A stretch of 64,000 nt of DNA from a virus. Location: IMG/VR virus record IMGVR_UViG_3300004463_001172, positions 1-64,000 of that record; one strand, written 5' to 3'. Numbering within the stretch: the first letter of the stretch is position 1; each line of letters begins with the position of its first letter. The translations under genes and the position numbers were made by a program. Shown in pieces: positions 571 to 61,046 of this stretch. The notes below the pieces were generated by a model. The model did no database searches, was not told the origin of the DNA, and saw only the letters and a program-made list of their open reading frames with translations.

Positions 571-686
571 CAGGGCTTGGCATGGCACGGATCGCCTGGG
601 CAGGGATCGGAGCGGCGCGGACTGGCTTAGCGGTGACCGGCACGGCCTGACTCGACGCGACAGGGATTGGCTTGGCATGGGTTTTT
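571..686 (+). ncRNA. Pentamer-periodic array 1 (22 units of GGM-NN), putative guide RNA
   Basis: Triplets in exact 5-nt phase from 574 to 679: 10 GGC, 5 GGA, 1 GGG, 3 GAC, 3 other; ends GGCATGGGTTTTT. The repeat is certain, the RNA role is inferred. Confidence 0.8.
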
Positions 687-711
687 CTTGCCGTCTTAAT
701 TGATTAATATT

Positions 712-813
712 TAACATGGCGTGGCATGGATAAGAAGTGACTGGACCGGCAAGGCATCCAAGGGCATGGCAGTGAACGGCATTGCATGGCACGTCACGGA
801 ATGGCATGGGTTT
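712..813 (+). ncRNA. Pentamer-periodic array 2 (19 units of GGM-NN), putative guide RNA
   Basis: Triplets in 5-nt phase from 718 to 808, 13 of 19 start with GG; starts TAACAT-GGC and ends GGCATGGGTTT like array 1. Confidence 0.8.
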
Positions 814-2823: not shown

Positions 2824-3338
2824 GGGTGCGTCCGTCCACAGAGGATTGCCCACCAGCGTCTCCACCACGGCTCGTCGACAACGGACGTGGTCTCCTGTTC
2901 GCGTTCCTGGCGTTGACGGCGCCGGACATGTCGACGGCCATCCAGCATGGCTAAATACAGCGTGGCCGCGAGGGCTTCAGAGAAGTCTTCGCGCCGCGAC
3001 CCGCGTTTGGCCCGTTCGTAAATGGCCCGAATGCCAGCCGTCAGTTCGACTAATTCGGCATCAGTGAGGCTGTCCGGATCCCGCCGATATTTCTCGATAT
3101 GGGCGTCGAGCCCCTCGGCATCGGTATCTTGATGAAACATGTCGGCCAGCCGCTTATCCATCACGGTCAGCAATGGATTGAGCCGGAGCTTGAGGAGTTC
3201 CACCTCATTCTTGAGCGCACTAAAGGCTTGCTGGCTGTCTTTCGTGCGGCCCTGCAGCCGCACCATTTCGGTGCGGATGGCGACGTAGAGGGCGACACTG
3301 ACGCCGAGCGGCGCGACATACCGGAGCCACTCATCCAT
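2820..3338 (-). CDS. Membrane-anchored hypothetical protein
   Basis: N-terminal TM segment followed by coiled coil. Confidence 0.6.
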   Translation of the reverse strand: MDEWLRYVAPLGVSVALYVAIRTEMVRLQGRTKDSQQAFSALKNEVELLKLRLNPLLTVMDKRLADMFHQDTDAEGLDAHIEKYRRDPDSLTDAELVELTAGIRAIYERAKRGSRREDFSEALAATLYLAMLDGRRHVRRRQRQEREQETTSVVDEPWWRRWWAILCGRTHP

Positions 3339-3837: not shown

Positions 3838-6800
3838 TTAGTATCCACCCGGCAGTGTGGCATCGACTACGCCTAACCTGTTGGCAAAGCCTACGCAGGA
3901 ATTGGCGGGTGTGTCATTCAGGCCGGCCACGATCGCGCCGCAACCCCGGAAATATCGCTGAAAACTGGTGCCAGAATAGCCGCTGGGTGGTGTGGTGACC
4001 CACAGTTTCGTGGTGGTCAAGACGCCGTTCTGATACGCGAATATAATCTCTGCGCCCGTGGTGAGCCCGGTCCAGACGGTCTTCGCGCCAATCGACGGAT
4101 TGGTGGTCACGACGTTGGTACAGTTGCCACACACGCCCCCCATGGCAGAGCTATAGTTGGTGCCATTACCGAAGATGCGCAAGCCATCTAAGCTCCAGAC
4201 ATCAGCGGTGATGCCGAGCGCCGTCCCAGGATTATTGACGAGGAGAATATCTTCGCCAAACCAACTAAAGAACGCCGAATCGGGCATCACCGAGGGTTTT
4301 TTGGTGTATAAGGCGGTTTTCCCTAAACCGGCCCCAATGATAGTACTCCGCCGCACCAGCGTATTTTCGTTGGCTGAATATTGCAGGCCCGCTGCCCCGC
4401 CGGGGGTGGTTGAGAGTCCTACCACGAGCATATGGTCGATGGTATTATCTAGCGGTCGAGAGCCTGGATCACTTTCATTGGTGGGATTCGCAGGGTGAAT
4501 ACTCATACCAATCAAGGTGTCATAGGCGATATTGCCTAACCAATGGTTATCGTGGCAATGTTTCCCGCTCGTGCGGGTATAGGAGGCACAGCTAAACCCG
4601 GTCGCATTGGTTGGATTCGCCCAGATATGATCCGCGATATTGTTTTCTACGATCCAATTCGCGGCGGGATAGAGCGCATAGGCGGTGTGGCCAACTCCAC
4701 TGGCGCAGTTATCTTCTTTTCCAGAGGAGCTACGATCATGGGCGTAATTCCGCCGCATGATCCCTCCGCTGTTGTATTTCACCACTGGATGGTCGCGTAA
4801 GCTGCCGTAAAACTCATTCTCTTCAATCAGCGCGTTGTCGCTATTATCCCGAATGGCCAACGGCGCACTGGTGCAATCAGAATCGCCCGGCACGGCGAGA
4901 AAAATATTGCGGCGCACCGTCGTATTTGGAGAGTATTTAATGTCTGTGTTGTATCCGGTGGTGCCAATGATATCATCATCGCCACTGAGCGATGTGCGGG
5001 CCCAGACAATGCCCTCAATTTTCCAGTTCGAGCAATTCCAGAGCTTCAGCGCGTTTTTCCCAACACCCGTTGCATTGACCCGTGCTGCCCGCTCGTTCTT
5101 GGCTTTAAGGACAACGGGCTGTGCGGCCGTGCCATTCGTATAGCCTGTCGTACAGTCGATGTTGGGTAAGCCGGTGGTGGCGTCGGTATAGACACCATCC
5201 GCGAGTTGCACCGTATAGCCTTTGAGCGCCTTCTTCAGCGTATAGGCAAAGGTCTTACAGGGGGTGCCTTCCGTTTGACAGTTATTGGCCGAGCCATCCG
5301 ATCCGCTGGGGCTCATATAGAGGGTTGTCCCCGCCGCAGGGGTACTGGTGGCCTGTGCAGCGGAGGCACTGTCGCCACTGAGCCCGGCTTGATCGATGCC
5401 CCGCATGCGCACGTTATAGGTGGTCGCTGGGGTGAGGCCACTCAAGCCGATGTTACACACGCCGCCGGTCGCGACCGTCACGCTGCTACAGGACACCCCA
5501 GACGCCCCGCAGACAAACGCCGCGCCCACGGTGCCTGTGCTATAGCCCGCTTGGCACTGACAGGGCGGTGAGCCGGTTTCGGTGCAGGTGGAGGAGGCCG
5601 AGAACCCACCCGTGGTGATGTTGGTAAAGCTCACGGTCCCCATGACTGGCGCAGTGGTATCGGCTGGGGTCGACATGATGGTGGAGGAAATCTTCGCAAT
5701 GCCAGCATTGGCGATGCTGAGGCTGGCACCTCGAAAATACTGATAGGTGGCTGAACTCCCAGTGACTTGCTCCTGAATCAGCCCGTTAAAGAGGATATAG
5801 GTATCGGGGACTAAGGTTTCTGTGGGCTCAATAAAGCCTTCAATGACCAGGTTATTGGCGCTGTAAATCGCCGTGCAGCGCCCGCTCCCAGCGAAGTCGT
5901 AGGCTTTATCCGACACGCCACTCGGATAATTGGCATCCCAGACAAACCCCCCATTATCACAACTGAATTTGTAGGTGCTGGCGTCGAGCACTTTATTCAA
6001 ATTTACGAAGCGGAACAACATCTCCACCCGATTGCCCACGAGCGAGCCATCATCGCCGGTGTTCGTGGTGGGCGCTAAACTGGCGAGCGTGACGCCGGTT
6101 TTAAAGTAAATCCGATTCGTACTATCCTTCCAGGCCATGCGCGTGACCCATATGCCCGTGGGTGGCACCGCGCTGGTGTTGCCCGTCATGGCGATAGCGT
6201 TGGCCTGAGTCCAATAGGCATCTGAGATGCCATCGGCATTGGGACTGTTGGCGCCAAACTCTTTGACGAGATAATCTTCGGTGATGCCCCCGCCGCCAGA
6301 GGGACACTGTGGGACGGCGGTGGATGAGGTGTGGAAGAACAAGCAATCGATGCGTAGCCCGGCTTTCGCGACCAAATGGAGTTGATCGCCGGTGGCGACG
6401 ACAAATGCCGTCTGCGGTGTGCCATTGAGCCCGTTTTTGGCATTCTCCAGCGTGCCAGCCCGCCCCAAGGGGAGCCAAGTCCAGCCACTGGTGGGCAGCC
6501 CCGAGTTGAGCGTGTTTAACTCGCGGTTATCGGGGGGATTTTTAAAGGGGGTCGTGCCAATCGTGGTCCACAGGCCGGCCGCGCTACTGGTGGGAATATC
6601 GACTAAGGCCCAGCCGTAGTAGGTGCCGGCGGTGAGCCCCGCTTGCGCGATCTCGCCAGCAAAGGGATTGCCGCCAATGGCAATGCGGACAAAGGCGGAG
6701 CCATTCGCCGTAGTGTCGGTGACTTGTTCCCACTCCCCACTCCTGAGCAGATTTTCGGCTTGGGCGGCAAAGCCTCCACCGGCGGCGGCAAAGGCGGGTC

Positions 6801-20569: not shown

Positions 20570-22982
20570 TTAAACATTTTTAATTGCTTGAACTGTAAGA
20601 TAGACACTACTTACGCCTGCACTAAGTTGTGCCGTCCAATTCGTATTGATTGTTGTTTGTTTAAATGGTACAGGCCATGATTTAGAAATTCCCCCACCAT
20701 CTGACGCTAAATCTATACTCCACACGACTGAACCGCCTGTCGTATCGCGTAAATCTACGCGAACCTCTGTACTGCTCTCATTCGTGATTTCCAGTGAGGT
20801 TAAATCAAGAAAGTGACTGGCGACTTGGGCAAGAAGAGTCGTTTCCGACGTCGTGGTTAGGACAATGCGATTTTGAACCACTAAGTCTCGCGGCCCATGA
20901 GGTACGGTAATCAAGCGCCCTAGATCGTCGCACACGACATTGGCCCGGTCCGCATCGGCTACGGCCGCTTGCCAGGTTTGACGGGCCTGTGCCCCGAATT
21001 TCACCGGATTGCCTGAATCCACCGCGTCATGGGCGAGATCCCCGCCCGAGATAAAGGTTCCCGTGCCTGCATTTGCGGTAATCGTCCCATCGACGGTATG
21101 CGACCCGCCACCATCGAAGATTTCAACCTTGAGATAACCGTTGGCATCCACCAGTAAGGGTGCCCAATCGCCGGTAGTGCCAACCAAGGAGGTATCCGCA
21201 TCGCGCCTCACCGCCAAGGCTCCTACTGCGGTATCTGTAGCCCCCGCCACGGCATCAATGGCTTTCCCGAGGTTAGTGGCTGCCACGCCTGGGACAATGG
21301 CGGTGGTAATCGATCCCACCGAGGCTAACACTCCTGTCGAATCGTTTGCTAAGGTGACCCGCTGGGCCGTCGCTTGTGCGCCACCGCCGACGACGTTGAG
21401 GACGGTGTTGGACACGGGTTGCGTGACGGCTGATCCATCGACGGTTAACGCGTTGGCCGCCGTCACAGCAGCGGAGCGTTCAGCGGTGAGATCGCGTATC
21501 TGTATGTACAGGTTCCGGTTGGCCGACATGCGCAGCGCCCCGGCATCGCCCTCATCGACACTATCTGGGCCTGTATCGTCAAACTGGGCCCCGGCCATCA
21601 TGACTTTGCTGGTGCCTGGGGTAAACGCGGCATCATCGGCAATCACCGGGTCATCGATGAGCTGTAAGGCGGTGAGCGCCGCGCCATCCACTTGTGTAGC
21701 AAAGGTACCCGCGTTCGTCACCGCATGCGCTGCAACCGTGACGGTTCCCTGAATCCGGGTGACATCGACATCAAGGCCATTGGACCCATCACCCGTAATC
21801 AGTGTGCCCCCTGCCGCCAGATTGACCACCTGTGAGCCATTACGGAGCGACCAGAGCCGCACGACATCGGCATCACCACTGACATCACTGGGCGCCGCTG
21901 CGGAGGCATACGCCCCTTGGAGAACGGGATTCCCTGCGGCCACCGCGTCATGCGCCGCATCTCCGACCACTTCAATCGTGTTGGTGCTGGCTGGCAGGGA
22001 GCCGACTGTGACGGTACCACTGATCGGTTGCGTAACCCCTGACCCGTCAACGACGACGGTGCCGCTGGGAATGACCCATAAGGCTCCGGTACTGTTGGTG
22101 CGGGCGGGCACATAATCGCCATCGACGGGCGTTAAAGCGCTGAGCGCATCATCACGCACGGCTAAGAGCGCCACCCCAGTATCCGTTGCGCCTTGGGCGC
22201 TATCAATCGCCTTGCCGAGGTTCGTGGCTGCCACGCCAGGCACCACGCTGGTAGTAATGGAGCCGAGCGAGGTGAGCACCCCATCGACCGTGAGCGAGCC
22301 GCCATTATCATCGATACTAAGCACGCCGGTTGAGTCGGTCGCGATGGTCACTCGTAAGGCTGTCGCTTCCGCACCGCCACCCACTACGGCCAGCGTTGCG
22401 TTGTCCATGGTGAGTGACCCGCCATTGTCGTCGACCGAGAGCACCCCTGTTGAATCGGTGGCTAAGGTCACGCGCTGCGCGGTTGCTTCGGTTCCACTCC
22501 CCACGACATTCAATGGCGCTGGTACGGAGGCCACCGCCACATCAAGGTTGCCGCCGAGGTTATCCGAGCGCAGATCAACGGGGATGGGGTCGGTGGTGGA
22601 GACTAGATTGGCGGTGCCAAGGGCACCCCAGGCCAATTTGGAAATCTGGAAGTGCACGAGTGAGATTTCATCAGTAGCAAGAATCGCTCCACCTGTTCCA
22701 CTCACTCTGTTATCGCTCAGGCTCTTTATCCTGAGCTTCTCTACATCGCTGTAGAGGTCGGACTATTTCATCATCCTCTGTGTAGGATGCCGGGCGCTCG
22801 TGGGTGGGTTATTGGGTTGGCTCCTCACCACCTAGTCTCTAGACCGTCGTGAGTACGTGTCGCCATTCCTCACGCTTGGTACGGCGTTACCTCAAGGAGG
22901 CTTTCACCGTTTCACCCGGTTTGCGCTATGCCGTTACCAGCATAGGGAACTATGGTTAATTCAGCTCGATATTGTCGGCCAA
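20570..22982 (-). CDS. Intron-split virion/tail-fibre-like repeat protein; exons 22959-22982 and 20570-22702 (~718 aa)
   Basis: GGAGG + TTG gives MADNIELN, which joins in frame to SGTGGAILATDEI after intron removal; internal repeats RVTLATDSTGVLS and VPGVAATNLGKAID. Confidence 0.8.
22703..22958 (-). mobile_element. Group I self-splicing intron, ORF-less (256 nt)
   Basis: Exon ends in U, intron ends in G; P1 GAAU|UA-ACCA-UA-GUUC with U.G at the splice site; R-like AGAGACUAG and S-like GAAAUAGUCC elements; P9-type hairpins. Confidence 0.85.
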
Positions 22983-42934: not shown

Positions 42935-43312
42935 CCCAATAGGAATCTCTGCCAGCAGGCGCTCTAACTCGGTCTGCGGGAGTGGCAGAATCTGAGTTGC
43001 CATAGGCAGGTCTGGTGACCATTCCTGGACGTTCCTACTCGAAATGTTGTATACTACGTCGTACCTCGAAAAGGGGCTGTGCCCGGTATCAAGAGCATGA
43101 GACATGTGGTGCGGGCACGACCGGAGCTGCCCAGAGCGGATCAACACCGCCATGTATGGCTATCGGCTCAGCGTTAAACGAAGGCGTCGCTACACGCCAA
43201 CCTTTTCGGGGTATCCTCCTATAGAAATCTCTGCTAATAGGCGTTCAAGTTCTGCCTGTGGTAACGGCAGGATCTGTGTTGCCATGGGCAAGTCTGGCGA
43301 CAATTCCTGCAC
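42935..43312 (-). repeat. Diverged 96-bp direct repeat of the glycosyltransferase 3' end (42935-43030 vs 43217-43312)
   Basis: 32 codons: 29 identical amino acids, 16 synonymous codon differences. Confidence 0.9.
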
Positions 43313-44491
43313 ACTACCGCTTGCCTGATCATCAGGGCCATTGACTTCGGCCTGCTGTCGCATCTCCGCCACTTGCGCTTCGAGTACCCGACAGGCCGTT
43401 TCAATCTCCGGTGAGGGTCGCCACTGATAAGCCCGTTGCGCATGCACAAAGGCTTTCTCGGGCATCCCTAGCCGGTCATAGAGTAGGGTTAAGCGCCAAT
43501 GCGGCCAGTAGGTATAGATCGGGCCTTGCAGAAAGAGGCTCGAGACCGGCGGCGGCATCTCCCCGGCGATACTGTACCAATGCAGCGCTTCCCCGAGACG
43601 GCCATCGGCTAAGGCACAATCGCCCAGGTGGGCATAGGCTTCGGCCCGCTGCCATTGGCCGGGCTCGCGTAAGGCTTGCCAGACATACTCTTGCGCGTGT
43701 GGAATATCGCCCGCGAGGCACCGGAGGAGCGAGAGATGAATCAAGGCTTGATAGCGCTCCTCTGGCCAGGTCGAGCGTTCAAGGTAGGCGAGATAGGCGG
43801 CTTCGGCGCCGGCGAAATCACCGCTGTCCTGTAATGTATTTCCCTTATAAAACAATGGTCTAGCGTCATTTATGTTGGCATCAGCGGCAGCGGTTAAATT
43901 GGGGATATTCATATCGATCCGCTGTTGCTCACGGAAGGCTCTTTTACGGGGCTTCTGTCGATGATGGACGATGAGTGTATGTACCAGGAGTTGCTTGTCG
44001 GCTGGACATTGCAGGACGTTATGGGAAGCTCCTTCATAACGAATCTTCGGGTCATTCTTGATGAGAAACGCGCGAGGATAAAACATCGCGGGAATCCCAA
44101 ATTCGCACTCGTCCAAATAGACGACACTGTTCACGAGCGCGAACGGTTCATGGGGCTGATCTAGCCAACTTTGGACGATACTTCGGCTTCGAACGTCGAG
44201 AACGTCGTCTCCATCAAGGCTGATAGCCCAGGTCGCATCAGGGAAATGGTCGAGTGCAATGTCTAAAACCGTGTTCCGAGCGAAGGCAAACGAGTTTTCC
44301 CACTGAAAGTAGAAGTAGTAACCGGGTTGGTCTTTGAGGAAATCTCTCACAAGAGTTTCGGTGTTATCCGTGGTGGCGAGGTCAAAGCCAATGCAGTAAT
44401 AGTCAAATAACCCCCACACGCTCGTTAGCGCACGGATAATATTTTCCGATTCGTCGCGTAAGATCATACAGAGCGTTGATTTTACTGGCAT
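43190..44491 (-). CDS. GT2 glycosyltransferase with TPR domain
   Basis: LCMILRDE..FAFARN..SLDGDD; TPR-like C-terminal half. Confidence 0.85.
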   Translation of the reverse strand: MPVKSTLCMILRDESENIIRALTSVWGLFDYYCIGFDLATTDNTETLVRDFLKDQPGYYFYFQWENSFAFARNTVLDIALDHFPDATWAISLDGDDVLDVRSRSIVQSWLDQPHEPFALVNSVVYLDECEFGIPAMFYPRAFLIKNDPKIRYEGASHNVLQCPADKQLLVHTLIVHHRQKPRKRAFREQQRIDMNIPNLTAAADANINDARPLFYKGNTLQDSGDFAGAEAAYLAYLERSTWPEERYQALIHLSLLRCLAGDIPHAQEYVWQALREPGQWQRAEAYAHLGDCALADGRLGEALHWYSIAGEMPPPVSSLFLQGPIYTYWPHWRLTLLYDRLGMPEKAFVHAQRAYQWRPSPEIETACRVLEAQVAEMRQQAEVNGPDDQASGSVQELSPDLPMATQILPLPQAELERLLAEISIGGYPEKVGV

Positions 44492-44524
44492 TATTTCCTC
44501 TATTAATCGTTCCCGTCTAAGCCC

Positions 44525-44569
44525 AAAAAGAAAGCGCCGTTCCCCTTGTACAAGGAAGGGCGCTTTCTT
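44525..44569 (-). terminator. Intrinsic terminator
   Basis: AAGAAAGCGCC/GGCGCTTTCTT stem followed by a T-tract on the minus strand. Confidence 0.7.
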
Positions 44570-44650
44570 ATGGCTTTCACCCGAGCAGCTCATGACTTCT
44601 GCTCGTTGGGCGCGTCAAATGTCTTACGTCGTTAACTAGGAGAAAGCATC

Positions 44651-45064
44651 ATGTACATACCGAGTGGCGTAGCGATTGAAGATAAGATTGTTGCTCATCT
44701 CTCCTCATTTCGTCAGGAGGTTCAGCTACTCTTCCCCTACGATCTAAGCATTCGTTGTTGTGACCGGATGATTCCGACGAATCATATGTGTGATGAGCGT
44801 TTCCGGTCGATTGAATTAATCGGCCCCCATCAGGTCGCGTATGCCTGGCACGTAATCCCCTATCCACGCCGACCTCGTATCCTCGCTATCCAGTTTTCTA
44901 CGGCGCTGATTGTACATACCGAACTATGGATCACATTAGCGGACCCACGACTCCTCTCCCAGACCCGTGACCTGTTACATCGTCTCCAAGAGATGCTCCA
45001 CATCACAGATGGTAATGATTATGCTCTCCAGTGTCTCTTTCCTGATCCTGCGCTCAACGTGTAA
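44651..45064 (+). CDS. Hypothetical protein (antisense insert)
   Basis: AGGAGA RBS; 137-aa ORF. Confidence 0.55.
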   Translation: MYIPSGVAIEDKIVAHLSSFRQEVQLLFPYDLSIRCCDRMIPTNHMCDERFRSIELIGPHQVAYAWHVIPYPRRPRILAIQFSTALIVHTELWITLADPRLLSQTRDLLHRLQEMLHITDGNDYALQCLFPDPALNV

Positions 45065-45078
45065 ATAACTTTAAGACC

Positions 45079-45315
45079 CTAACACCACATGTCTTCAGGG
45101 GCTGGCGCTTCATGCGCTTCAAAACTCACCCCGACAACAAATTCTTGTGTAGTGCGGTTCCAGGCCGTGGTATGCACGTGCCACCGCGTCTGCTGACAGA
45201 CAATCCGTGCGCCCGGCATATAGGTCTCGTAGAGGGCTAAGCGCTCTTCTGCCGCAAACTCTTGGGTTTCAATCGTGTGACCATTGTCGCGGTTGCGGAT
45301 TGTGAGGTGTGCCAT
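45079..45315 (-). CDS. Hypothetical protein
   Basis: Packed ORF after the radical SAM gene. Confidence 0.5.
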   Translation of the reverse strand: MAHLTIRNRDNGHTIETQEFAAEERLALYETYMPGARIVCQQTRWHVHTTAWNRTTQEFVVGVSFEAHEAPAPEDMWC

Positions 45316-45325
45316 CGCATCCTAC

Positions 45326-46435
45326 TTAGACAAAGTTCACGTGGGCCGGCGCCGGGTGAATAGCGTCAACAATCGCCCGATTCTTTTGATTGAACTGGCA
45401 GACCTGACAACTCGTGGCCTTGAAGTCGCCATAGGCGGCGTGTTTTTGCTCGGAATGAAACCAGTCGATGAAGCGCTGGTGCGTAAGGTCGCCGACTTCG
45501 CCATGCTTGGTATAGGCGGTTGAGCAGCACCTATAAATTCGTAAATCTCCACCGATATACATATTGAATTGCTGATACCCGCAGAACTCGTAATCGGGGG
45601 CATGTTGCTGGAGGTCGCGAATCCGGTCGCCAAACATATTCACGAGACGAAAGGTATCATCCTGCAGTGTCATGGCCTTCTCAATCGCTTCGCCAATCAC
45701 GGCAATCATCTCGCCATAGTACGCATCTCCCGCCTGGCTAAACATGGCCGAGAGCCGCACATTATGCGCGCCAGCGTCCTTCATCTGCCGTACTCCGTCG
45801 CACAACTCAGCCCAGTTTTCCAGCGTAATCACGTACCCACAGCCCAGGAGACAGGGACTGTGCGCCAAGTCAATTTGGGTTCGGATCGCCATCACATGGC
45901 GCAAGGCCGTGCTAAAGTATCGTGGGTTGACCTGGCGGATGGCGGCATAGGTCTCGGGGCTTCCCGCATCAATCGAGACGCGAATCCACGCCATTGCGGC
46001 ATAGACCGATTCCCAACCTGGTCGTAAGACCACCCCATTGGTCACAAGCGCTGTTTCCATCCCTAACCGCTGTGCGTTGGTAAAGAGGTGTAAGTGGTCC
46101 GGATGGACGGTCGGCTCCCCACCACCCGTAAATTGGATCGCCTTGACACCCAGTGTGGCGCAATCCTGAAGAATTTCGAGGGCCTTAACCGTCGGAATCA
46201 TCCGGTTCGGATTGACATTGAGCTGGCCATGTTCATAGACGCCAAACTGTTCCGAGGATAGGCCATCTGGACGCCTGTACGCACAGAAACGGCAGCTTTG
46301 CTGGCAAAAATCGCTCAAAATTATTTGACATTGCGTCGGAATGATTTGTTGTCCTTGACGTAATTCAGCAATCTTCTCTATATGCCATAACGCTTTCTCG
46401 CTTGAATAGGCTTGATCGGATCGAGAAATACTCAT
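45326..46435 (-). CDS. Radical SAM protein with SPASM/twitch domain
   Basis: CQQSCRFC, FTGGGEP, C-terminal C..CC..CQVC. Confidence 0.9.
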   Translation of the reverse strand: MSISRSDQAYSSEKALWHIEKIAELRQGQQIIPTQCQIILSDFCQQSCRFCAYRRPDGLSSEQFGVYEHGQLNVNPNRMIPTVKALEILQDCATLGVKAIQFTGGGEPTVHPDHLHLFTNAQRLGMETALVTNGVVLRPGWESVYAAMAWIRVSIDAGSPETYAAIRQVNPRYFSTALRHVMAIRTQIDLAHSPCLLGCGYVITLENWAELCDGVRQMKDAGAHNVRLSAMFSQAGDAYYGEMIAVIGEAIEKAMTLQDDTFRLVNMFGDRIRDLQQHAPDYEFCGYQQFNMYIGGDLRIYRCCSTAYTKHGEVGDLTHQRFIDWFHSEQKHAAYGDFKATSCQVCQFNQKNRAIVDAIHPAPAHVNFV

Positions 46436-46448
46436 CTATCCCTCAAAG

Positions 46449-46518
46449 AGGCTAGTCAAGCGGAGCGGTGCTTAGCTGAGTCAAGCCAAGTCGAGCAAAG
46501 CCCAGCATAGCAAAGGAT
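46449..46518 (+). repeat. Orphan pentamer-periodic array (14 units of AGY-NN)
   Basis: 13 of 14 in-phase triplets start with AG (8 AGC, 3 AGT, 2 AGG, 1 TGC). Confidence 0.8.
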
Positions 46519-46521
46519 ATT

Positions 46522-46560
46522 ACGTATAGGCTGGCAATCGGTATTTGCTAGCCTATACGT
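46522..46560. terminator. 16-bp hairpin directly after the orphan array
   Basis: ACGTATAGGCTGGCAA-7nt-TTGCTAGCCTATACGT (one G.U pair on the + strand). Confidence 0.65.
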
Positions 46561-46561
46561 T

Positions 46562-47143
46562 TCATGTCCTAGTCCAAATAGCATAAAAAGCACCAAACGG
46601 CTCTACCTTTCGCCCATGGTCATCGGTATCATGATATTTTTCACAGCAAAGACATACCCACTTATCACCATTAAAATCATTTGGCTCCCAGCCACTTAGA
46701 TGATTTTGCCAGTGACCTCCGCCCATACCCCACGCATCTGGACGACCATCATAATTCTGTTCATGAAACCCTAATGGTGTAAACACACAAATTTGTTGTC
46801 GTGCCAGGCGTTCGGCTTCACGGAGTAACCGTCGACCCTCGGGTTTCTCTAAATGCTCAATCACATCACCTGCCACGACCGTATCCACCGACTGATCGGG
46901 AAAGATCCGCATCACCTGATCCCATGTTCCATGTAACAACACATGATGTGGGACATCGGGGCAGGCCTCGCGCAGCCGAGCAATATACGGCGCATACGGC
47001 TCAATGCCGATATGGAGTTGACAGCGCACCAGCTGCTGGGGGCGAATGCCAATGCCCACATCAAGCACTACTGGCGCTGGCCGCAACTGCGCTTGCGCCG
47101 CATCTACCAATGCATCTGCCGAATACCAGGTTATGGCCGACAT
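46562..47143 (-). CDS. Class I SAM-dependent methyltransferase
   Basis: VLDVGIG, DTVVAGDVIEHL. Confidence 0.85.
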   Translation of the reverse strand: MSAITWYSADALVDAAQAQLRPAPVVLDVGIGIRPQQLVRCQLHIGIEPYAPYIARLREACPDVPHHVLLHGTWDQVMRIFPDQSVDTVVAGDVIEHLEKPEGRRLLREAERLARQQICVFTPLGFHEQNYDGRPDAWGMGGGHWQNHLSGWEPNDFNGDKWVCLCCEKYHDTDDHGRKVEPFGAFYAIWTRT

Positions 47144-47730
47144 CTACCTTTCTCTAGATCCACCAGGCACACATGCATCGGGCGGTCCTGCCGTGCGCCG
47201 AGGCGTGAGGTGAGCCCGGTTAGCAACGGCTCTTTGCGTTCACAGGTGGCCCCGAGCCAATCTTCTAAGACCGGAATACTGACCGATGGCCCATACAGCC
47301 GCTCGACATCACACGTGATCATCAGTCGGCCGCCCGGTTCGACTTGCGCCCACAGATGGTTCAACACGGTCGGATGCCATGCGGGTGGAATCTCTTCCAG
47401 GTAACTAATGGCGAGTACCATCGCAAAGGCTTGGTGAAAGGGCTGACGGATGTCATGCTGACGAAAGTTGGGCATCACTGAAAAGGTTGGCGTGGCCTGA
47501 CTATCGCTATGCAGCACTTGCGGTACGAGAGCTTCGATGGCCTCAGCAAAGGGGCGCTGAAAGGCTTCAAAGCCACACCCGGTATTATGGAGGCTGTGAG
47601 GCTTCACCGCTTCAATGACCGCGAGTGCGTAGGGCCACTCATAGGCCCGTGACCAATCCTGCCACTGTGGGTCAAAGAGGTCATCTGAGCGAAGTAATCG
47701 AAAGGCGTGAATCATGGCATCAGTCGGCAT
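47131..47730 (-). CDS. Methyltransferase-like protein
   Basis: SRAYEWPY, NTGCG, VLAISYLEEI, VEPGGRLMITCD. Confidence 0.7.
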   Translation of the reverse strand: MPTDAMIHAFRLLRSDDLFDPQWQDWSRAYEWPYALAVIEAVKPHSLHNTGCGFEAFQRPFAEAIEALVPQVLHSDSQATPTFSVMPNFRQHDIRQPFHQAFAMVLAISYLEEIPPAWHPTVLNHLWAQVEPGGRLMITCDVERLYGPSVSIPVLEDWLGATCERKEPLLTGLTSRLGARQDRPMHVCLVDLEKGRCRP

Positions 47731-48551
47731 TAATCTTCATAGCTCCCCAGCGGTAATTGGCCCCAGCTCTGGTGGTTGCGTACTACATCTTCCGGACGGC
47801 CGTCATAGGTCGCCCCCGCATGGGGCCATGTGCCCGATTTCGTCCAGAGTGGACAGGGACATCCGCGATAACACAGCGGATCGTGTTGGTCGTGGTATTG
47901 ATGGGCTCCCCAGATATCAGGCGCATTGATGGCATAGACACCTTGGGTCTGTAATCTGACCCACGCATCCTCGTCCTCTGGCCAGGGCTCCGTGTAGCTT
48001 TCATCATATCCGCCAATCTCTAGCAGGCGCTGTTTGTGAATCGCAGCGAGCATCGGCACATGCCAGTAGCTGGAATGATGAAAGGGCGAGACAAATAACT
48101 CCTCAATCCGCGAAAAATCCTGCGTCCAGGGAATATGATCCAGGAGCGCTTCCGTCATTGGTGAATGCACCCGGTAGCAATTGGCGAAGATATACGCCTG
48201 CACGTCTGCATCCGCGAGATAACTGGCAAACAGTTCCAAGGCATTCGGCGCGGCCATGACATCAGCCCCCTGAAAGACGAGGATTTCCGCCTGGGCTCGC
48301 TGAATCCCCACGTTCCAGGCTAATGCTGGGTTGCAGTAATAGGGTCGATGGAGATAGATATAGCGCAGCGGGAAGGCATCTGACTTTCGGGCCTCATCCA
48401 CCACACGCTTGGTGTCATCGGTCGAGCCGTCATCGATCACGATGGCCTCAAAACGGCTGTGTGCGTAGGTCTGCACGCTCAGTGACAAGAGATTCCGTCG
48501 TAGGTGCGCCGCCCGATTAAAGCTTGGAATAATGACGGAAAAGTCCGGCAT
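47730..48551 (-). CDS. GT2 glycosyltransferase
   Basis: FSVIIPSFNR, VIDDGSTD, IGGYDE..EDEDAW. Confidence 0.9.
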   Translation of the reverse strand: MPDFSVIIPSFNRAAHLRRNLLSLSVQTYAHSRFEAIVIDDGSTDDTKRVVDEARKSDAFPLRYIYLHRPYYCNPALAWNVGIQRAQAEILVFQGADVMAAPNALELFASYLADADVQAYIFANCYRVHSPMTEALLDHIPWTQDFSRIEELFVSPFHHSSYWHVPMLAAIHKQRLLEIGGYDESYTEPWPEDEDAWVRLQTQGVYAINAPDIWGAHQYHDQHDPLCYRGCPCPLWTKSGTWPHAGATYDGRPEDVVRNHQSWGQLPLGSYED

Positions 48552-48988
48552 TACGTTGCGTCCTCCCCCTCTGCTTCCGTCGGTGGCTCCGGGATCGGCA
48601 GGGTCATCGGGTCTGCACTATACTGCGCCTGGCGGGAGCGAAAGAGATTACCGACGACGTTTAATTCATCGGTTACTTGATCGGCCTGGGCTTTAACTTG
48701 CTCTCGGTTCGTCTCAAGCCATTCCTGGATTTCCTGCTGCACCAGCTCCGACGGTTCCACCAGCATCTCTGGGTAGCCATCGGCTTCCAGCGCGTCATAG
48801 GCTTGCACCATCGTATCCATTAGGGCTAAGCGCGTGCGATGGCGGCCGATCTGCGCATTCACTGTGGCCTTGGCCTCATCGCTGATATTCATGGTTAAGA
48901 GGCGTTGCAAGCCATTGAGCTGGGCCAGCATCTGCGCCCGGTCCTGCTCGACGTGCTCATAATTACGTGGGTGGCGCTCCTGCTCCAT
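48551..48988 (-). CDS. Hypothetical coiled-coil protein
   Basis: GGAGG RBS; packed ORF. Confidence 0.55.
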   Translation of the reverse strand: MEQERHPRNYEHVEQDRAQMLAQLNGLQRLLTMNISDEAKATVNAQIGRHRTRLALMDTMVQAYDALEADGYPEMLVEPSELVQQEIQEWLETNREQVKAQADQVTDELNVVGNLFRSRQAQYSADPMTLPIPEPPTEAEGEDAT

Positions 48989-49005
48989 CGTGCACTCCTC
49001 CCGGG

Positions 49006-49356
49006 CTAGGTTCGTCGAATGGTGACTAAGGCGCGTTCGCCGATAATGCGTGCCGTATCCTCGCCATACGCGGCTTTGATCCGGCTCAACTCGGCAATCA
49101 CCATGTTGAGCGCTGCGGCCACATCAGCATCCCGGTCAGGGGGTTCTGGCGCGGCTGGGGCGTCTGGTGTCTCAACCGGCCAATCGAGAGTATCTGTGCT
49201 GAGCGTGGCATCAGGCATGGGTTCCCCATGGCCTACGGCGTGAATCGTGGCGAGGTCTGGTGTCACGCCTTCTGACACCTCTGGTTCATCGCCTTTACTG
49301 CGGTCGCGTGATCCGGGGTCTCTCATGAATTCACCTCCGTTAAGGTGTTTGGACAT
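49006..49356 (-). CDS. Hypothetical acidic protein
   Basis: Packed ORF. Confidence 0.5.
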   Translation of the reverse strand: MSKHLNGGEFMRDPGSRDRSKGDEPEVSEGVTPDLATIHAVGHGEPMPDATLSTDTLDWPVETPDAPAAPEPPDRDADVAAALNMVIAELSRIKAAYGEDTARIIGERALVTIRRT

Positions 49357-50654
49357 TGTACCGATGGCTGCTTTGTGGCATAAAACGCTTCAATCCAGGC
49401 GAGGAGTTCATCGCGGAGGACCAACGTCTCATCGGTCCACCACGGCAACCTCTGATCGCCGCCTTTCCCTTGTACTCCGTTATGGTACAACTGCTCGTAG
49501 TGCGGTACCCAGCCGAGGTCAATAGCACGCTGGTAGATGGGCGTGCCTGGCAGTGGGATGAGGGTAGAAATCTGTGCGGAATCGGGCTGGGCGTCTTCAA
49601 TCCAGCGCCTCGTGGCTTCCATACTCTGCCGATCATCCCCTTCCATGCCAAAGATGAGATAGGCTTTCACGGCAATGCCCACGTCATGGCAGGCCTGCAC
49701 CGCTTTGGTATTCAGCTCAACCGTATTTTTGCTAATGGCGTCGAGGATCCGCTGGTCTCCGCTTTCAAACCCGAACGAAATGCAATCAATTCCCGCCCGT
49801 TTCATCTCAGGTAACAGATCATAGTGCAACACATTCGCTCGCATGTTGACTCGGAAATGATATGACTCTTTAGCCAACACACGGCAAAACTCTTCCACCC
49901 ACGACCGCTTCAAACCCCAGAGATCATCAACCGCGACAAACCGTTTCAATCCATAGGTACATTCCAGGTCTTGTAGTTCTTCAACCACCAAGCGTACAGA
50001 CCGCACGCGAAGCTTCCGGGCCGCGTCCCCCAATGTCCTGACGCAATATGCGCAATTGAACGGACAGCCTCTTGAGCATAACAGTGTGCTACTGAAGCCG
50101 TTTCCAACTGTCAAATTACTGCAATAACTACTGAGATCCACTAAATCTCTGGCCGGCAGCGGTAACACATCAAGGTTCTGCGGTGCCGACGCATGGAACA
50201 CCCCAGGCGACCCGCCTTCCTGAATCCAGCGCGGGAGCACATGATCGGCTTCCCCGACAAACACGGCGTCAAAGCCATCCTGCAGGCATTCATGCGGTAG
50301 TGCACTGGCATGGGGCCCACCAATAATGATTCTCCAATGTGGATTCTTCCATTTAAGAGCTGTCTGAACGTTGATAGCACTGGAATATTGGGCCGAGGTA
50401 CAGGTCAAACCAAATACTGTATTATCTGGCTGCTCTTCAATCCATGCTGGCAACCTGAGATAGCCTTGTCGGACAAAAGCGTCTGGCATGACCCCGAACT
50501 GTCGTGCGAGAAAGTCATCCCCTGTCATATCCCAGAATGCCACATCTCCACCAGAGGCCCGGACTTCCGCCGCGAGCATGAGTAGCCCTAATGGCGGTGC
50601 TCCCTTATCTGAGACCAAGAACGGCGAACATGGGTTAATAAAAATGATGCGCAA
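49323..50654 (-). CDS. B12-binding (class B-type) radical SAM protein
   Basis: PPLGLLMLAA, IIGGPHAS, SRGCPFNCAYC, FGFESG, PLPGTP. Confidence 0.9.
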   Translation of the reverse strand: MRIIFINPCSPFLVSDKGAPPLGLLMLAAEVRASGGDVAFWDMTGDDFLARQFGVMPDAFVRQGYLRLPAWIEEQPDNTVFGLTCTSAQYSSAINVQTALKWKNPHWRIIIGGPHASALPHECLQDGFDAVFVGEADHVLPRWIQEGGSPGVFHASAPQNLDVLPLPARDLVDLSSYCSNLTVGNGFSSTLLCSRGCPFNCAYCVRTLGDAARKLRVRSVRLVVEELQDLECTYGLKRFVAVDDLWGLKRSWVEEFCRVLAKESYHFRVNMRANVLHYDLLPEMKRAGIDCISFGFESGDQRILDAISKNTVELNTKAVQACHDVGIAVKAYLIFGMEGDDRQSMEATRRWIEDAQPDSAQISTLIPLPGTPIYQRAIDLGWVPHYEQLYHNGVQGKGGDQRLPWWTDETLVLRDELLAWIEAFYATKQPSVQCPNTLTEVNS

Positions 50655-50674
50655 TGCTTCTTATCCTCGTTTAG

Positions 50675-51589
50675 TCATGCCAGCGCCTTCGCCACGACGT
50701 CGAGGAACGTGGCACATTGGGTTTGGTACTGGTACTGTTGATGCACCAGTCGATACCCTGTATCCGCGAAGTCCTGATATGCATCTGCCGCCAGTCCCAG
50801 AATCGTTTCCATCTGTGTGGCCAAGGCTTCCGGTGTCTCCCCATACGCGACCCCTCGCCCGATGGGGAAGAGTTCCGGCATGCTAATCGGTTCACTCACC
50901 ACCGGCACGCCACACCCCAAGGCTTCGTACAAGCGGGTCTCGGTATTTGGGCTGCTGGAATAGTGGCAATTGAGCACCACCCGACAGCGGTTGAGGTACT
51001 GCACGAGCGCCGCCCCATAACACCGATCAGCAATCGCATCGGGCCAGGCCCACCGAAACCCGCGTGGCAGGCAGGCGAGTGTATCTTGAATCCACTGAAT
51101 CCGCCGCGCGCTGGCATAGCCATACACACCGATATCGATCTCCTTCTCGACCGCGAGTCGCCGATGAACGGTGGCATCGACCCCACTACTCGGACACCAG
51201 GCCACCCGGCGCGCGCCTAATGCTGTCACCGTGGACAGACAGCAGGAGCAATGGTGCACAACGAGATCAAACGCTGCGGCATTGCGGCTTAGCGCATTGG
51301 CTTTGGCGAGCACCACTTCATCCATTGTTGGCCACTCCGGCGACATGACCTCGGCGTGCCAACAAATCGTGGGGGCTCCCGTGGTCTTGCGGAGGTGCTG
51401 AATCGCCACACGGCTCAAGCCATACCCTTGTGATATGACATTCAGGTCTGCCGGTGGCAGTCCAGTGAGGTCTTCATCACGCATATTGGCAAAGGTGACC
51501 TGATGCCCCAAGGTCTCGAAGCCCCGGTGCATCATGGACTCACAGCCCCACGCAAGATTTGCTGCTTTGCCAATCAGGTTGATCTTCAT
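50675..51589 (-). CDS. CgeB-like (GT-B fold) glycosyltransferase
   Basis: YLNRCRVVLN..RLYEALGCG..VVSE. Confidence 0.8.
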   Translation of the reverse strand: MKINLIGKAANLAWGCESMMHRGFETLGHQVTFANMRDEDLTGLPPADLNVISQGYGLSRVAIQHLRKTTGAPTICWHAEVMSPEWPTMDEVVLAKANALSRNAAAFDLVVHHCSCCLSTVTALGARRVAWCPSSGVDATVHRRLAVEKEIDIGVYGYASARRIQWIQDTLACLPRGFRWAWPDAIADRCYGAALVQYLNRCRVVLNCHYSSSPNTETRLYEALGCGVPVVSEPISMPELFPIGRGVAYGETPEALATQMETILGLAADAYQDFADTGYRLVHQQYQYQTQCATFLDVVAKALA

Positions 51590-51782
51590 TTCACTCTCTG
51601 TGCCCGTTTGAGCGCAGGCGTTCGCTGGAGTGCTTCAGCCAAATATTCTGCAACAGGATAAAGATCATCTGAATGCAGCAGATAAATTATCTCTGTGTCT
51701 TCATACGCGGGACGTTTATACGCCGGTAAGCAGAGCTTGAGCCATTCATAGAGTGAGTTCACTAAGTCTCTATCCAAGTCCA
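51586..51782 (-). CDS. Small hypothetical inserted protein
   Basis: Fills the gap between two GT genes; start uncertain. Confidence 0.35.
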
Positions 51783-52876
51783 ATCCTCTCCAACCCTGTT
51801 GCGAGCCGCTGGGTAAAGCCCTGCCAGTGGAAGTGCGAGGTGGCTCGTCTGAGCGCCTGCAGGGCTTTCTCATGCACGATGTCATCACACGTGGCCTGGG
51901 CTTCTTGCATGGTCTTCCAAAGGATTTCCGGCCGAATGATCGCTTGCTGGTAACAACTGCCATCCGGGTGTGGCTTGGAACCCTCTGGGTCAATCATCCA
52001 CCCGCAGGACGAATCCACCCACTCATTCATCGGTGCAGCATTGAGGGTGATCACGGGTCGGCCATTGACGAGCGCCTCAATAAGGCTCAACCCTAAACCT
52101 TCCATTTTACTCGGCTGTACCACGACACGCCCTAATCCATAGACCCCTCGCGGCGGTGGATAATCCCCTGATTCCCAGACGATATGTGGTGGGAGGGGCT
52201 GCTCCCAGCCAATGATCTTCACCGCCACCTCTTGGGGGAGTTGGCAATGGATCAACACTTCAGGCGGATTCCCCTCCAGCGGTTGACAGGCCAGCGCCGC
52301 GAGCAGCGTATCCAACCCTTTCCTGGCGTCGATGCCAATCCACCCTTGCGAACTGACAAAATCAAACCGCCGGTCCAGGGTCAGCGTTGAGGCCTCGACC
52401 AAGTGCTCATCCGGCACGCCCCAGCCGATATAGTGTGTCTGGGCCTCCTTCCCCCACTCTTGTAAGAGGGTGTACGCTCGTGCCGTGACACAGAGGAGCA
52501 GGTCATTAAAGCGTAGATAGGGCTTCTGGGGGAAGCTCAGGTAATTATCGATTTGTTGAACCGTTTTGATCCCAGCCTTTTGCAACGTCATAGGGAGCTC
52601 GGCTTGCAGCTCTTCGACAAACACCACCGCCTCAAGTCGGTGAAAACTGGCCCATTGCAAGAGCGCCAACGGTGGAATGACCGCATCGGGATAGTCCGTG
52701 CGGTTCGGCCAGTCCCATTCCCCAGTGGTTTCCCGCATGGGCTGCCCGTAAATCATCCCCTGCCGCACAAACATGAAACACTCGTGATGGAGGTCGACAC
52801 AGGCCCGACGTAGTGTCTGGGTAACATAGGGAACCCCACGCGCAAATGAGGTCGTGACAAATCCAAGCCTCGCCAT
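51770..52876 (-). CDS. GT4 glycosyltransferase
   Basis: RKGLD, PSKMEGLGLSLIEAL..G.PVI. Confidence 0.9.
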   Translation of the reverse strand: MARLGFVTTSFARGVPYVTQTLRRACVDLHHECFMFVRQGMIYGQPMRETTGEWDWPNRTDYPDAVIPPLALLQWASFHRLEAVVFVEELQAELPMTLQKAGIKTVQQIDNYLSFPQKPYLRFNDLLLCVTARAYTLLQEWGKEAQTHYIGWGVPDEHLVEASTLTLDRRFDFVSSQGWIGIDARKGLDTLLAALACQPLEGNPPEVLIHCQLPQEVAVKIIGWEQPLPPHIVWESGDYPPPRGVYGLGRVVVQPSKMEGLGLSLIEALVNGRPVITLNAAPMNEWVDSSCGWMIDPEGSKPHPDGSCYQQAIIRPEILWKTMQEAQATCDDIVHEKALQALRRATSHFHWQGFTQRLATGLERIGLG

Positions 52877-59314: not shown

Positions 59315-59543
59315 GTACGGCGATCCTCATGCATCGAGGACTGGTCAGCGACTGACAATGTGGCGCTCCGCTGACGAGCGCAGGGTAAAGAAAGGGGAGG
59401 GGCCTCTCCCTCTTCCCTAGTCACTACTTATGGATGTCTTCTCTTCCATTCTATGCCGTCCATGCTATAATCTTAGATAGCCAATGAGATGAGCTGCGGC
59501 ATGATGGCACAAACTGAGACATCTCATGATGAGACCTTACAAG

Positions 59544-61046
59544 CTAAGACCTGTTACCTTCTGGGATCACCGCGAGAATCCTGCTGGAGACGGCTCGTTT
59601 CTCCGCTGTGGTACCTGGAAGGTCATCGAGTGCTTCCTTGATCGTCATCTCAACTGTCATCCGCCGTAAATCTCTTCGTAGCCCTTCAATGAGTGCCATC
59701 TGTGTTTGCTCAGCTTCCCGCTCACGTTCAGCCTGGGCAATCGCTACACTTGCGACGATTCGTAGGAACTGTCCACCAGCTGCGGCGTGGGTTACGAGAT
59801 CGACACTATTGACCTGACGAATGGCATCGACATGCAAGACTTGCTTTCCACCCGATTCTGTATGATGGGCGTCCCCAGATGAATCAATACTCAGCCCGTA
59901 AGGGAAGACGTACCCTTTCTCCGCTAGGTAGCGTAAATTGTTGCGAAGCCAATCGGCGGAAGGTAAGAGCCGTAATGTCCCCACGAGTCGAGAGCCCTCA
60001 ATCATTGGTTGGGTGAGCACACCAATCAGGTCACGGCTATAACCTTTTGGATTGACACGATACTCTTCATCACTCAGATGATCAAAGACCGGCTTTCCCT
60101 TTAAAGTCCGGTCATACGCATAACAGCGTGCTCCTTCAAACAATGGCGCCGCTTTCCGCAGCACATCGAGTGAATACAGCCGATCATTCTTCGATATGCC
60201 TGCTTCGATAATCGCCACTTTCCACTCGCGGCCATCTGCACCAGACTCTTGCAGAATCGTCATCGTTTCATGGAGCGCTAACGGTTCGCCGTCGATATAG
60301 GATTCTGTAATACTGACCGTCTCGGCTGGCTCTCCATGATACCCTTGCAACATTTGCTGTTGCGGGTCATTTGCTTGGGCTTCTTCAGCTTGTTTCTGCT
60401 GTTCGGCCTGAATCTCTTTGGGTGACTGCCCGCGTAACCGCTTCAGAATATCTAAGACCGTATCAAACTCTTGATAATCCGAATCTTTATGGCGTTGTCC
60501 GGCCTCTTGAAGCGCATCCTCGACCTTTATGGCTTCGATCGCTTCTTGTATCGTATCGTACCGTACCGATTCCTCCATCTCCTGTGCCGCACCAATCTTT
60601 GGCACCAAGCGATTAATCAGGCTCGTCAAGGCATCACGCTCGCCCGAGGTCATTTCTAATTCCCGGCGTCCCAGGAGGTTCAGTGCTGAGTAAATGGCTT
60701 CCTTGTAGCACTCTTCATGGTGCTGCCTGACAGGTTCAGGCATGTCATACTGTTCGGTGAGCGGAACAGGATCTACCGCTGTCAGTGCCGCGACTGTTGC
60801 ATCCACCCATGCTTGCGCCGCCGCATCTAAGATCACATCTGGCTCGGACTCTTTGATCCGGTGCCACTTTCCCTCTTTGTCTTGTTCGTAGAGCTTCTTC
60901 ACGGCGGCGAATGCCACCGCAAATTGTCGAGACTCATCATCATACGACTTCGCCGCACTGTTAAAGGCCGCCATAAAAATACGCTTAGCATGCGCTGGCA
61001 TATCCTTTGTGCTGGCAGGAAGCTCTTTGACGCTTTTATAAGGCAT
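59544..61046 (-). CDS. ChaB domain fused to a prohead-protease-like domain
   Basis: N-terminal MPY....LP..AKRIFMAAFN..AFAAVKK..GKW (ChaB); C-terminal GISKNDRLYS..GLSID..SVDLVTHAAAGG. Confidence 0.8.
   Translation of the reverse strand: MPYKSVKELPASTKDMPAHAKRIFMAAFNSAAKSYDDESRQFAVAFAAVKKLYEQDKEGKWHRIKESEPDVILDAAAQAWVDATVAALTAVDPVPLTEQYDMPEPVRQHHEECYKEAIYSALNLLGRRELEMTSGERDALTSLINRLVPKIGAAQEMEESVRYDTIQEAIEAIKVEDALQEAGQRHKDSDYQEFDTVLDILKRLRGQSPKEIQAEQQKQAEEAQANDPQQQMLQGYHGEPAETVSITESYIDGEPLALHETMTILQESGADGREWKVAIIEAGISKNDRLYSLDVLRKAAPLFEGARCYAYDRTLKGKPVFDHLSDEEYRVNPKGYSRDLIGVLTQPMIEGSRLVGTLRLLPSADWLRNNLRYLAEKGYVFPYGLSIDSSGDAHHTESGGKQVLHVDAIRQVNSVDLVTHAAAGGQFLRIVASVAIAQAEREREAEQTQMALIEGLRRDLRRMTVEMTIKEALDDLPGTTAEKRAVSSRILAVIPEGNRS

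Follow-up and report, generated by a model that had tools for sequence, protein, structure and literature searches.

VIPR systems and solo vrRNAs

A VIPR system combines a vap gene with Vipr, a RAMP protein of small size, and with guide RNAs (vrRNAs). Each vrRNA has 9-16 GGY/NN pentamers followed by a conserved 3' tail, and its NN pairs serve to read double-stranded DNA, with every third base skipped (bioRxiv 10.64898/2026.04.26.720920, 10.64898/2026.04.26.720927). By cryo-EM, one Vipr protomer holds each pentamer, with G1 recognized by H17 and D177, G2 by R138 and W178, and Y3 by a pocket with R179. GGY>AGY is among the substitutions tested on the vrRNA of Escherichia phage SUSP1, where perturbation of GGY abolished silencing according to the text, and 'YNNNG' alternative repeats appear in the Methods of the first preprint (bioRxiv 10.64898/2026.04.26.720920, 10.64898/2026.04.26.720927). 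Solo vrRNAs, described by Lopez et al. in 2026, a few months after VIPR itself, are carried by satellites and by phages and rely on the Vipr of a rival; they are recognized by a contig with no Vipr, or with the nearest one >20 kb away, and their published roles are to redirect or to attack the rival's VIPR. The survey of solo vrRNAs stayed with the GGY grammar (bioRxiv 10.64898/2026.10.15.759431).

The window analyzed here is a stretch of 64,000 nucleotides, positions 1 to 64,000 of the 109,136-bp record IMGVR_UViG_3300004463_001172. IMG/VR lists it as a provirus of 86% completeness, and the best match of its capsid is Microcystis phage Mae-JY22 (32%). At 46449-46560 the window carries a tract of AG-Y-NN pentamers with a terminal hairpin (the AG tract). 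Like the type II VIPR vrRNAs of SUSP1 and of a P. fulva prophage, the tract is a tandem array of pentamers, each a constant triplet plus a hypervariable dinucleotide, and has a putative structured tail after the repeats, and the Vipr homologue of the record keeps the RNA-contact residues. It differs from them in its constant triplet (AGY instead of GGY), in its tail (a plain 16-bp hairpin, where that of SUSP1 is a pseudoknot) and in its position, 46 kb from vipr and antisense inside a late structural/glycosylation operon.

Solo vrRNAs of F5 satellites and of VIPR-null phages offer the closest parallel in layout, being likewise a lone repeat tract with a tail >20 kb from vipr, with Vipr borrowed in trans; both their GGY grammar and their tail are those of the borrowed Vipr, and the phage cases sit at vipr-vap1 deletions (bioRxiv 10.64898/2026.10.15.759431). 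In the window, by contrast, the carrier is VIPR-positive, the guide would be in a dialect other than the carrier's own, and the site is an insertion between two late genes. A looser parallel is found in viral solitary CRISPR repeat units (RNA anti-CRISPRs) and viral mini-arrays, in which an element carries the RNA half only and exploits or blocks a protein encoded elsewhere. There the protein family and the RNA architecture are different, so that the parallel is an analogy only; 'dummy' crRNAs are cited in the solo vrRNA preprint (bioRxiv 10.64898/2026.10.15.759431).

The resident VIPR system

The first gene of the window (1-570, + strand) encodes a protein of 189 aa that belongs to phrog_4652 and has no Pfam match. 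Homologues, 31-41% identical, are found in Felixounavirus, mycobacteriophage LittleE, and Gordonia and Pseudomonas phages, and in all four loci that were opened GG period-5 arrays flank the vipr homologue on the same strand. Two GG-type vrRNA arrays of GGM-NN units follow the gene at 571-813 (+ strand), each ending GGCAT-GGGTT-T. Together with a further GG array at 66.5 kb, the gene and these arrays are a VIPR system, and as such known biology. H19, R, E176, W177 and R178 of the resident Vipr correspond to SUSP1 sites H17, R138, D177, W178 and R179 (the SUSP1 numbering was verified on the Felixounavirus homologue L001, which has H17, D177, W178 and R179 at those numbers), and the resident Vipr is predicted from these residues to read GGY. 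On a quick maximum-likelihood tree it falls in an all-GG group, adjoining L019 and L049; a single-sequence scan found no close relatives. Profile searches with all-type and AG-only models, filters off, found no second Vipr in the record.

A tblastn search found no vap homologue in the record, and none follows the resident vipr, unlike in the four reference phages; a 78-aa Cys-rich ORF at the last base of the record (record end 108900-109133) would directly precede vipr if the ends were joined. The 571-813 arrays contain off-consensus units (GCC, AGC, TGA and three consecutive GAC). Array 1 has 22 units, compared with the published 9-16, and may hold two staggered guides. The array at 66.5 kb, which lies outside the window (66548-66640, - strand), has 17 GGT-NN units, ends GGGGTTTT and begins at the stop codon that closes a small ribbon-helix-helix gene; it counts as solo under the >20 kb rule, though it is in the resident GG dialect. 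The window also contains a group I intron at 22739-22972 on the - strand (Rfam RF00028, full model, 60.5 bits).

An AG-phased tract with a terminal hairpin

The putative guide region of the tract, a candidate solo vrRNA, spans 46449-46518 on the + strand and consists of 14 pentamers: AGGCT, AGTCA, AGCGG, AGCGG, TGCTT, AGCTG, AGTCA, AGCCA, AGTCG, AGCAA, AGCCC, AGCAT, AGCAA and AGGAT. AG occupies positions 1-2 in 13 of the 14 units, TGC being the single exception, and position 3 is C or T in 12, with AGG at the first and last units. The NN positions take 10 distinct values over the 14 units, and the register is unbroken. The 3' tail (46519-46560) begins with a 3-nt linker, ATT, and continues into a hairpin with arms at 46522-46537 and 46545-46560 and a 7-nt loop, TCGGTAT; the fold of the tail has a z of -5.15. 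Read as + strand RNA, the hairpin has 16 bp, one of them a G.U pair in an otherwise perfect helix; read as - strand RNA, the G.U position becomes a mismatch. The G.U pair thus weakly favors the + strand.

A phased-dinucleotide scan of the 109,136-bp record recovered four period-5 chains of at least 8 units (574-625, 743-809, 46449-46515 and 66554-66635). The AG chain scores 13 of 14, while 30 Markov shuffles of the whole record gave 8 at most, and an information-content scan at period 5 ranks the tract first (2.99 bits, background at most 1.92). Chance is excluded as its source. An earlier note on this DNA had read the same 14 pentamers and the 16-bp hairpin, exactly as the sequence has them, and had placed the tract, correctly, 46 kb from the Cas7-like gene; the genome-wide scan for 5-nt periodicity that it proposed is the one in which the tract comes out on top. 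It had further remarked that the tract has the 3+2 grammar and strand sense of the 571-813 arrays with another constant triplet, and that AGC occurs once in array 1. Both remarks hold: the shared grammar is that of VIPR vrRNAs, and AGCGG is present once in array 1.

No second copy of the 130-nt insert exists elsewhere in the record, and Rfam gave no match at the tract on either strand, at gathering thresholds or at E up to 10. Neither the phased-dinucleotide nor the information-content scan gave a strong period-5 signal for a tract at 59481-59550. Other sources of such a repeat were considered and rejected: a slippage microsatellite, as the units differ; coding periodicity, as the period is 5 and not 3; and a CsrA-type sponge, as there are no GGA loops. 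TRAP binds (G/U)AG-NN repeats in Bacillus trp leaders, with two-base spacing and at least 11 copies. A TRAP-binding leader was rejected as well: the AG sense of the tract is antisense to mRNA, to both flanking genes, with no leader context; GAG or UAG makes up 6 of the 14 triplets when these are read as NAG; and, as in vrRNAs, the constant part of the tract includes the pyrimidine that follows AG.

AGY-NN arrays in other viral genomes

Viral contigs were scanned for eight AGY-NN units, which gave at least 120 loci where ~0.1 were expected (an estimate); most of these are plain microsatellites. NN is variable in 32 of the AGY loci, and a Vipr homologue lies within the fetched stretch in 19 of these 32, compared with 3 of the 88 microsatellite loci. 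Classified by array type, 21 loci are AG-only and 79 GG-only, and none is a true mix; at the single locus where both chain types occur, the AG chain is a plain AGCCC microsatellite distant from the GG arrays. On the maximum-likelihood tree the AG label requires 3 changes, compared with 18.6 when labels are shuffled, and forms about three AG-type clades. The AG-type VIPR loci are on IMG/VR contigs (L134, L139, L183, L184 and L207; L110, L161, L169, L170 and L200; L312/L313), and their arrays run co-oriented with vipr when read as AGY. They probably fall under the 'YNNNG' repeats of the first preprint. By these associations, AGY-NN is a real second vrRNA dialect.

The AG-type arrays at L164:6526-7087 and L175:2200-2480 have an AGCAGG boundary that shifts the register by one base between guides, apparently much as in the 'staggered' architecture of GG arrays in the preprint.

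The AG tract shares with the AG-type VIPR loci its AGY-NN units, the variable NN and an AGCAA-AGG(A/C)T end, and with clade iii (L134, L139, L183, L184, L207) also the hairpin after the last unit. All guides of clade iii end AGCA(A/C)-AGGCT-A, then a hairpin; at L312/L313, a contig of 63% GC, five of five guides end AGCAA-AGGA(T/G/C). The tract ends AGCAT-AGCAA-AGGAT-AT, of which 12 nt, AGCAAAGGATAT, are identical to one L313 guide, and a pattern of (AGYNN)x4 followed by AGCAAAGGAT has matches only at L312/L313 in the collection. The loci differ from the tract in carrying tandem guides beside a vipr with a changed G1 pocket (Asn/Ser, Thr/Gly), whereas the window carries one copy, lacks such a vipr and shows another hairpin sequence.

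For the tail, a covariance model was built from ten clade iii tails and run without filters on both strands of the window, with rough calibration. Its best match is the tract (46509-46567, + strand, full model, 14.9 bits, E ~0.04), with the two terminal units contributing to the score, and the runner-up in the window has an E of 1.7. This match weakly supports an AG-type kinship of the tail. Beyond the last two units the likeness to known AG-type tails is weak, and a pattern taken from the tail (AAAGGATATTACG, a gap, CGGTATT) retrieved only an unrelated coding family and no relatives of the tail.

With 14 units, the tract is within the published range of 9-16 for vrRNAs. The canonical GGY triplet is absent, A replacing the first G in 13 of the 14 units, and we therefore file the tract as an AG-type variant and not as a canonical vrRNA. 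A VIPR guide is expected to be a discrete RNA of ~100 nt that co-purifies with Vipr, and to have its Vipr in the same element or in trans; the one in the same element is the 1-570 protein, which is GG-type. In the layout of the record, 46 kb separate the tract from vipr, beyond the >20 kb that defines solo vrRNAs. It has the RNA features of the AG-type dialect, and the matching Vipr, with Asn/Ser and Thr/Gly, is absent from the record. On balance, we think it likely that the tract is an AG-type vrRNA by descent.

Vipr pocket residues and array type

AG-type and GG-type Viprs are best told apart by two alignment columns, those of H19 and E176 of the resident Vipr. They were picked before comparison with the cryo-EM assignments, and they are the G1-recognition sites, H17 and D177. 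Counted over distinct sequences (72 GG-type, 18 AG-type), the H17 site is His in 69 of 72 GG-type proteins and Asn, Ser or Ala in 16 of 18 AG-type proteins, while the D177 site is Asp or Glu in 70 of 72 and Gly, Thr, Asn or Ala in 17 of 18, respectively. The G2 contact R138 and the Y3-pocket residue R179 are Arg in both types (71 and 70 of 72 GG-type, and 18 of 18 AG-type at either site). In the Vipr of L312/L313 (188 aa), Asn takes the H17 site and positions 177-179 are Thr-Tyr-Arg; a vap-like gene follows.

The resident Vipr, the only one in the record, keeps His and Glu at the two sites and is predicted, from this correlation and the published structure, not to be the reader of the AG RNA. 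The earlier note had proposed a guide for a second paralogue with other triplet specificity. The idea of another specificity stands, in that AGY loci have Viprs with an altered G1 pocket; the paralogue is not in the record, where the profile searches recovered one Vipr. Given that one Vipr, a reader of the AG RNA would come from another element. With the record 86% complete, a cognate vipr could sit in the missing part.

The tract might instead be an ordinary extra guide of the resident system, with vrRNA genes dispersed over the genome and a resident Vipr that tolerates A at the first constant position. The resident arrays do contain scattered non-GG units, AGCGG included, a second dispersed array is known (GG, at 66.5 kb), the grammar and + strand sense of the tract are those of arrays 1 and 2, and the record encodes no other reader. 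Set against this, the resident Vipr retains the His and acidic residue that read G1, and its relatives are GG-only. At 80 Vipr loci of this family (586 kb), no AG-constant array lies within 4 kb of vipr; there are 205 GG chains on the vipr strand and no array with another constant; ten further records of phages with GG-type VIPR (893 kb) have no AGY array either, by a pattern that does recover the AG array of the window. The tail of the tract does not end in GGGTT-T as the three resident arrays do, and in SUSP1 silencing was reportedly abolished by perturbations that include GGY>AGY. We consider an extra resident guide improbable, and the earlier suggestion of a trans-encoded guide for the 1-570 protein, which retains the G-reading residues, is likewise disfavored. 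The preferred reading remains an AG-type guide for the Vipr of another element.

Genomic setting of the AG tract

The tract fills a gap of 126 nt (46436-46561) between two - strand genes, a class I methyltransferase gene (46562-47143), which is upstream of the insertion on the operon strand, and a radical SAM gene (45326-46435), which is downstream of it. The hairpin is 1 nt away from the stop codon of the methyltransferase gene; at its other end the tract meets the radical SAM ribosome-binding site, which on the - strand reads GAGGGA and is contained in the 5' flank of the array (46436-46448; + strand, CTATCCCTCAAAG). In the closest relative (L005/L006; radical SAM 81% identical), the 3' end of the methyltransferase gene overlaps the radical SAM start by ~20 nt; five relatives at greater distance have the upstream gene in an ATGA-type overlap with the radical SAM start or abutting it. 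Because the relatives overlap or abut at this junction, the cassette is an insertion in the provirus lineage: a lineage-specific insertion, antisense to the late operon. By the same comparison, it split an overlapping gene pair, with its left edge now providing the radical SAM ribosome-binding site. The sequence collections contain one close relative of the flanking genes.

The cassette is surrounded by a co-oriented cluster of glycosyltransferase, methyltransferase and radical SAM genes in the late region (43190-52876), partly common to the relative L005.

All genes neighboring the tract are on the - strand, and a scan of 46000-47000 called neither a promoter (sigma-70-like) nor an intrinsic terminator for the AG array on the + strand; transcription of the AG strand is therefore putative. 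The operon mRNA, antisense to the AG array, is the sole RNA that is sure to be made.

That mRNA suggests another function, unrelated to VIPR: GCU at every fifth nucleotide and a stem-loop in the - strand transcript could bind a TRAP-like protein with a 5-nt register, or stabilize or process the mRNA, and so set translation of the radical SAM gene. Its strand is the one surely transcribed, the element lies between the stop codon of the methyltransferase gene and the radical SAM ribosome-binding site, and its 3+2 spacing recalls TRAP sites. Such an element is missing, however, from all operon relatives, whose genes overlap or abut; Rfam is silent on either strand, the hairpin carries its mismatch on the - strand, and no TRAP-like gene is known in the record. 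Moreover, the AGY sense and the AGCAA-AGGAT end match the vrRNAs of AG-type VIPR loci, in which the arrays are co-oriented with vipr. We regard a - strand mRNA element as highly improbable, and return below to the tract as a + strand guide.

A TATCC motif is found just 5' of the AG array, and likewise before arrays in the AG-type VIPR loci L139, L161, L169, L110 and L313, where it takes the forms of TATCCCAAC separators, CTATCCA and GTTATCCGATAAC. In the window the motif also provides, on the opposite strand, the radical SAM ribosome-binding site. Noticed post hoc, it might mark the 5' boundary of arrays or be coincidental, and the hint is weak.

Target searches

A gapped-target search with the NN string of the tract, which the earlier note had called for, returned no target above chance. 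In the record itself, under the 1-nt skip rule, none of the four arrays gave anything above shuffled-order controls. Two exact 8-unit seeds gave 23 and 22 matches in viral contigs, about the chance number, and one exact 9-unit seed gave 34 matches in 185,579 GTDB genomes; none of these matches extends past the seed. The 215 fetched loci (1.9 Mb), AG-type VIPR loci included, gave no match above such controls at skips of 0-2, and the sole match at a skip of 3 is the array itself. L312/L313, searched for targets in both directions, gave nothing, and no REP-like, vipr or vrRNA target of the tract was found. With exact-match seeds and no known host, the null is uninformative.

The absence of a target in any search would fit a cassette that came from an AG-type VIPR element by illegitimate recombination, is not expressed, and is retained for its radical SAM ribosome-binding site. 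So would its lineage-specific insertion, its position antisense to the late operon with no recognizable promoter, and the left edge that doubles as GAGGGA ribosome-binding site. Set against this, the register is kept over 14 units with one off-consensus unit, and the 16-bp hairpin is intact and perfect on the + strand only. The intact register and hairpin suggest either recent capture or selection, and more relatives are needed to separate the two. We judge a dead passenger to be rather unlikely.

A proposed solo guide in a foreign dialect

The account that we favor is that a ~125-nt cassette, a solo VIPR guide-RNA gene in the AGY-NN dialect, entered the provirus antisense between late genes that formerly overlapped. 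If the AG RNA works as published for GGY systems, one Vipr protomer would grip each constant triplet and present the two variable bases, and the NN string would read double-stranded DNA, skipping every third base, and silence transcription. The reader would be an AG-type Vipr, with Asn/Ser and Thr/Gly at the two pocket sites, from a co-resident or incoming rival element, and the AG RNA would either steer this Vipr onto a target of the phage's choosing or soak it up. As a whole, a solo AGY-dialect vrRNA in a VIPR-positive provirus of the GG dialect is the best explanation that we have, and we hold it with roughly even confidence.

Its parts differ in strength. Transcription from the + strand, the binding protein and the biological role of the AG RNA are all points that we infer. 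By analogy with the published solo vrRNAs, the tract probably acts through the Vipr of a rival element, and the same precedent makes a decoy or borrowed-effector role possible; the earlier note had listed a decoy RNA against rival systems among its options. A stronger version, in which GGY and AGY are mutually orthogonal dialects set by two pocket residues and the provirus pirates or jams the AG Vipr of a competitor, we offer tentatively, as possible but less than probable. While the vrRNA is of a known kind, a heterotypic solo guide tied to a two-residue pocket switch is new relative to the VIPR preprints.

If this account is true, the first constant base may be a specificity switch tied to His17->Asn/Ser and Asp177->Thr/Gly, and a switch of this type would make orthogonal Vipr-guide pairs usable side by side as tools. 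Solo guides would not need to share the dialect of the element that carries them, and surveys limited to GGY would then undercount them. Guide cassettes could move as ~125-nt units into unrelated operons. With piracy, the provirus would have a counter-defence at a cost of ~125 nt and no misfire via its own Vipr; were the AG RNA silent, the locus would still be a dated example of vrRNA mobility.

Observations at other VIPR loci

The VIPR loci of actinophages have tRNA-like minihelices after their GG arrays (LittleE, L002:3690-3760 and 3850-3890; MakoManhole, L003:2975-3030 and 3085-3140), each with a T-arm, GGTTCGAnTCC, closed by a 6-bp acceptor-like stem. Rfam gave nothing for the arrays of the four reference phages, minihelices included, and 'tRNA' is absent from the main text of the first VIPR preprint (bioRxiv 10.64898/2026.04.26.720920, 10.64898/2026.04.26.720927). 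The minihelices may be an undescribed type of tail that recruits tRNA-processing enzymes. In LittleE, gp35 (L002:2060-2449, - strand) is annotated as a hypothetical CDS, and its opposite strand holds GG period-5 arrays at 2172-2238 and 2297-2363; gp35 is probably a vrRNA region misannotated as a gene.
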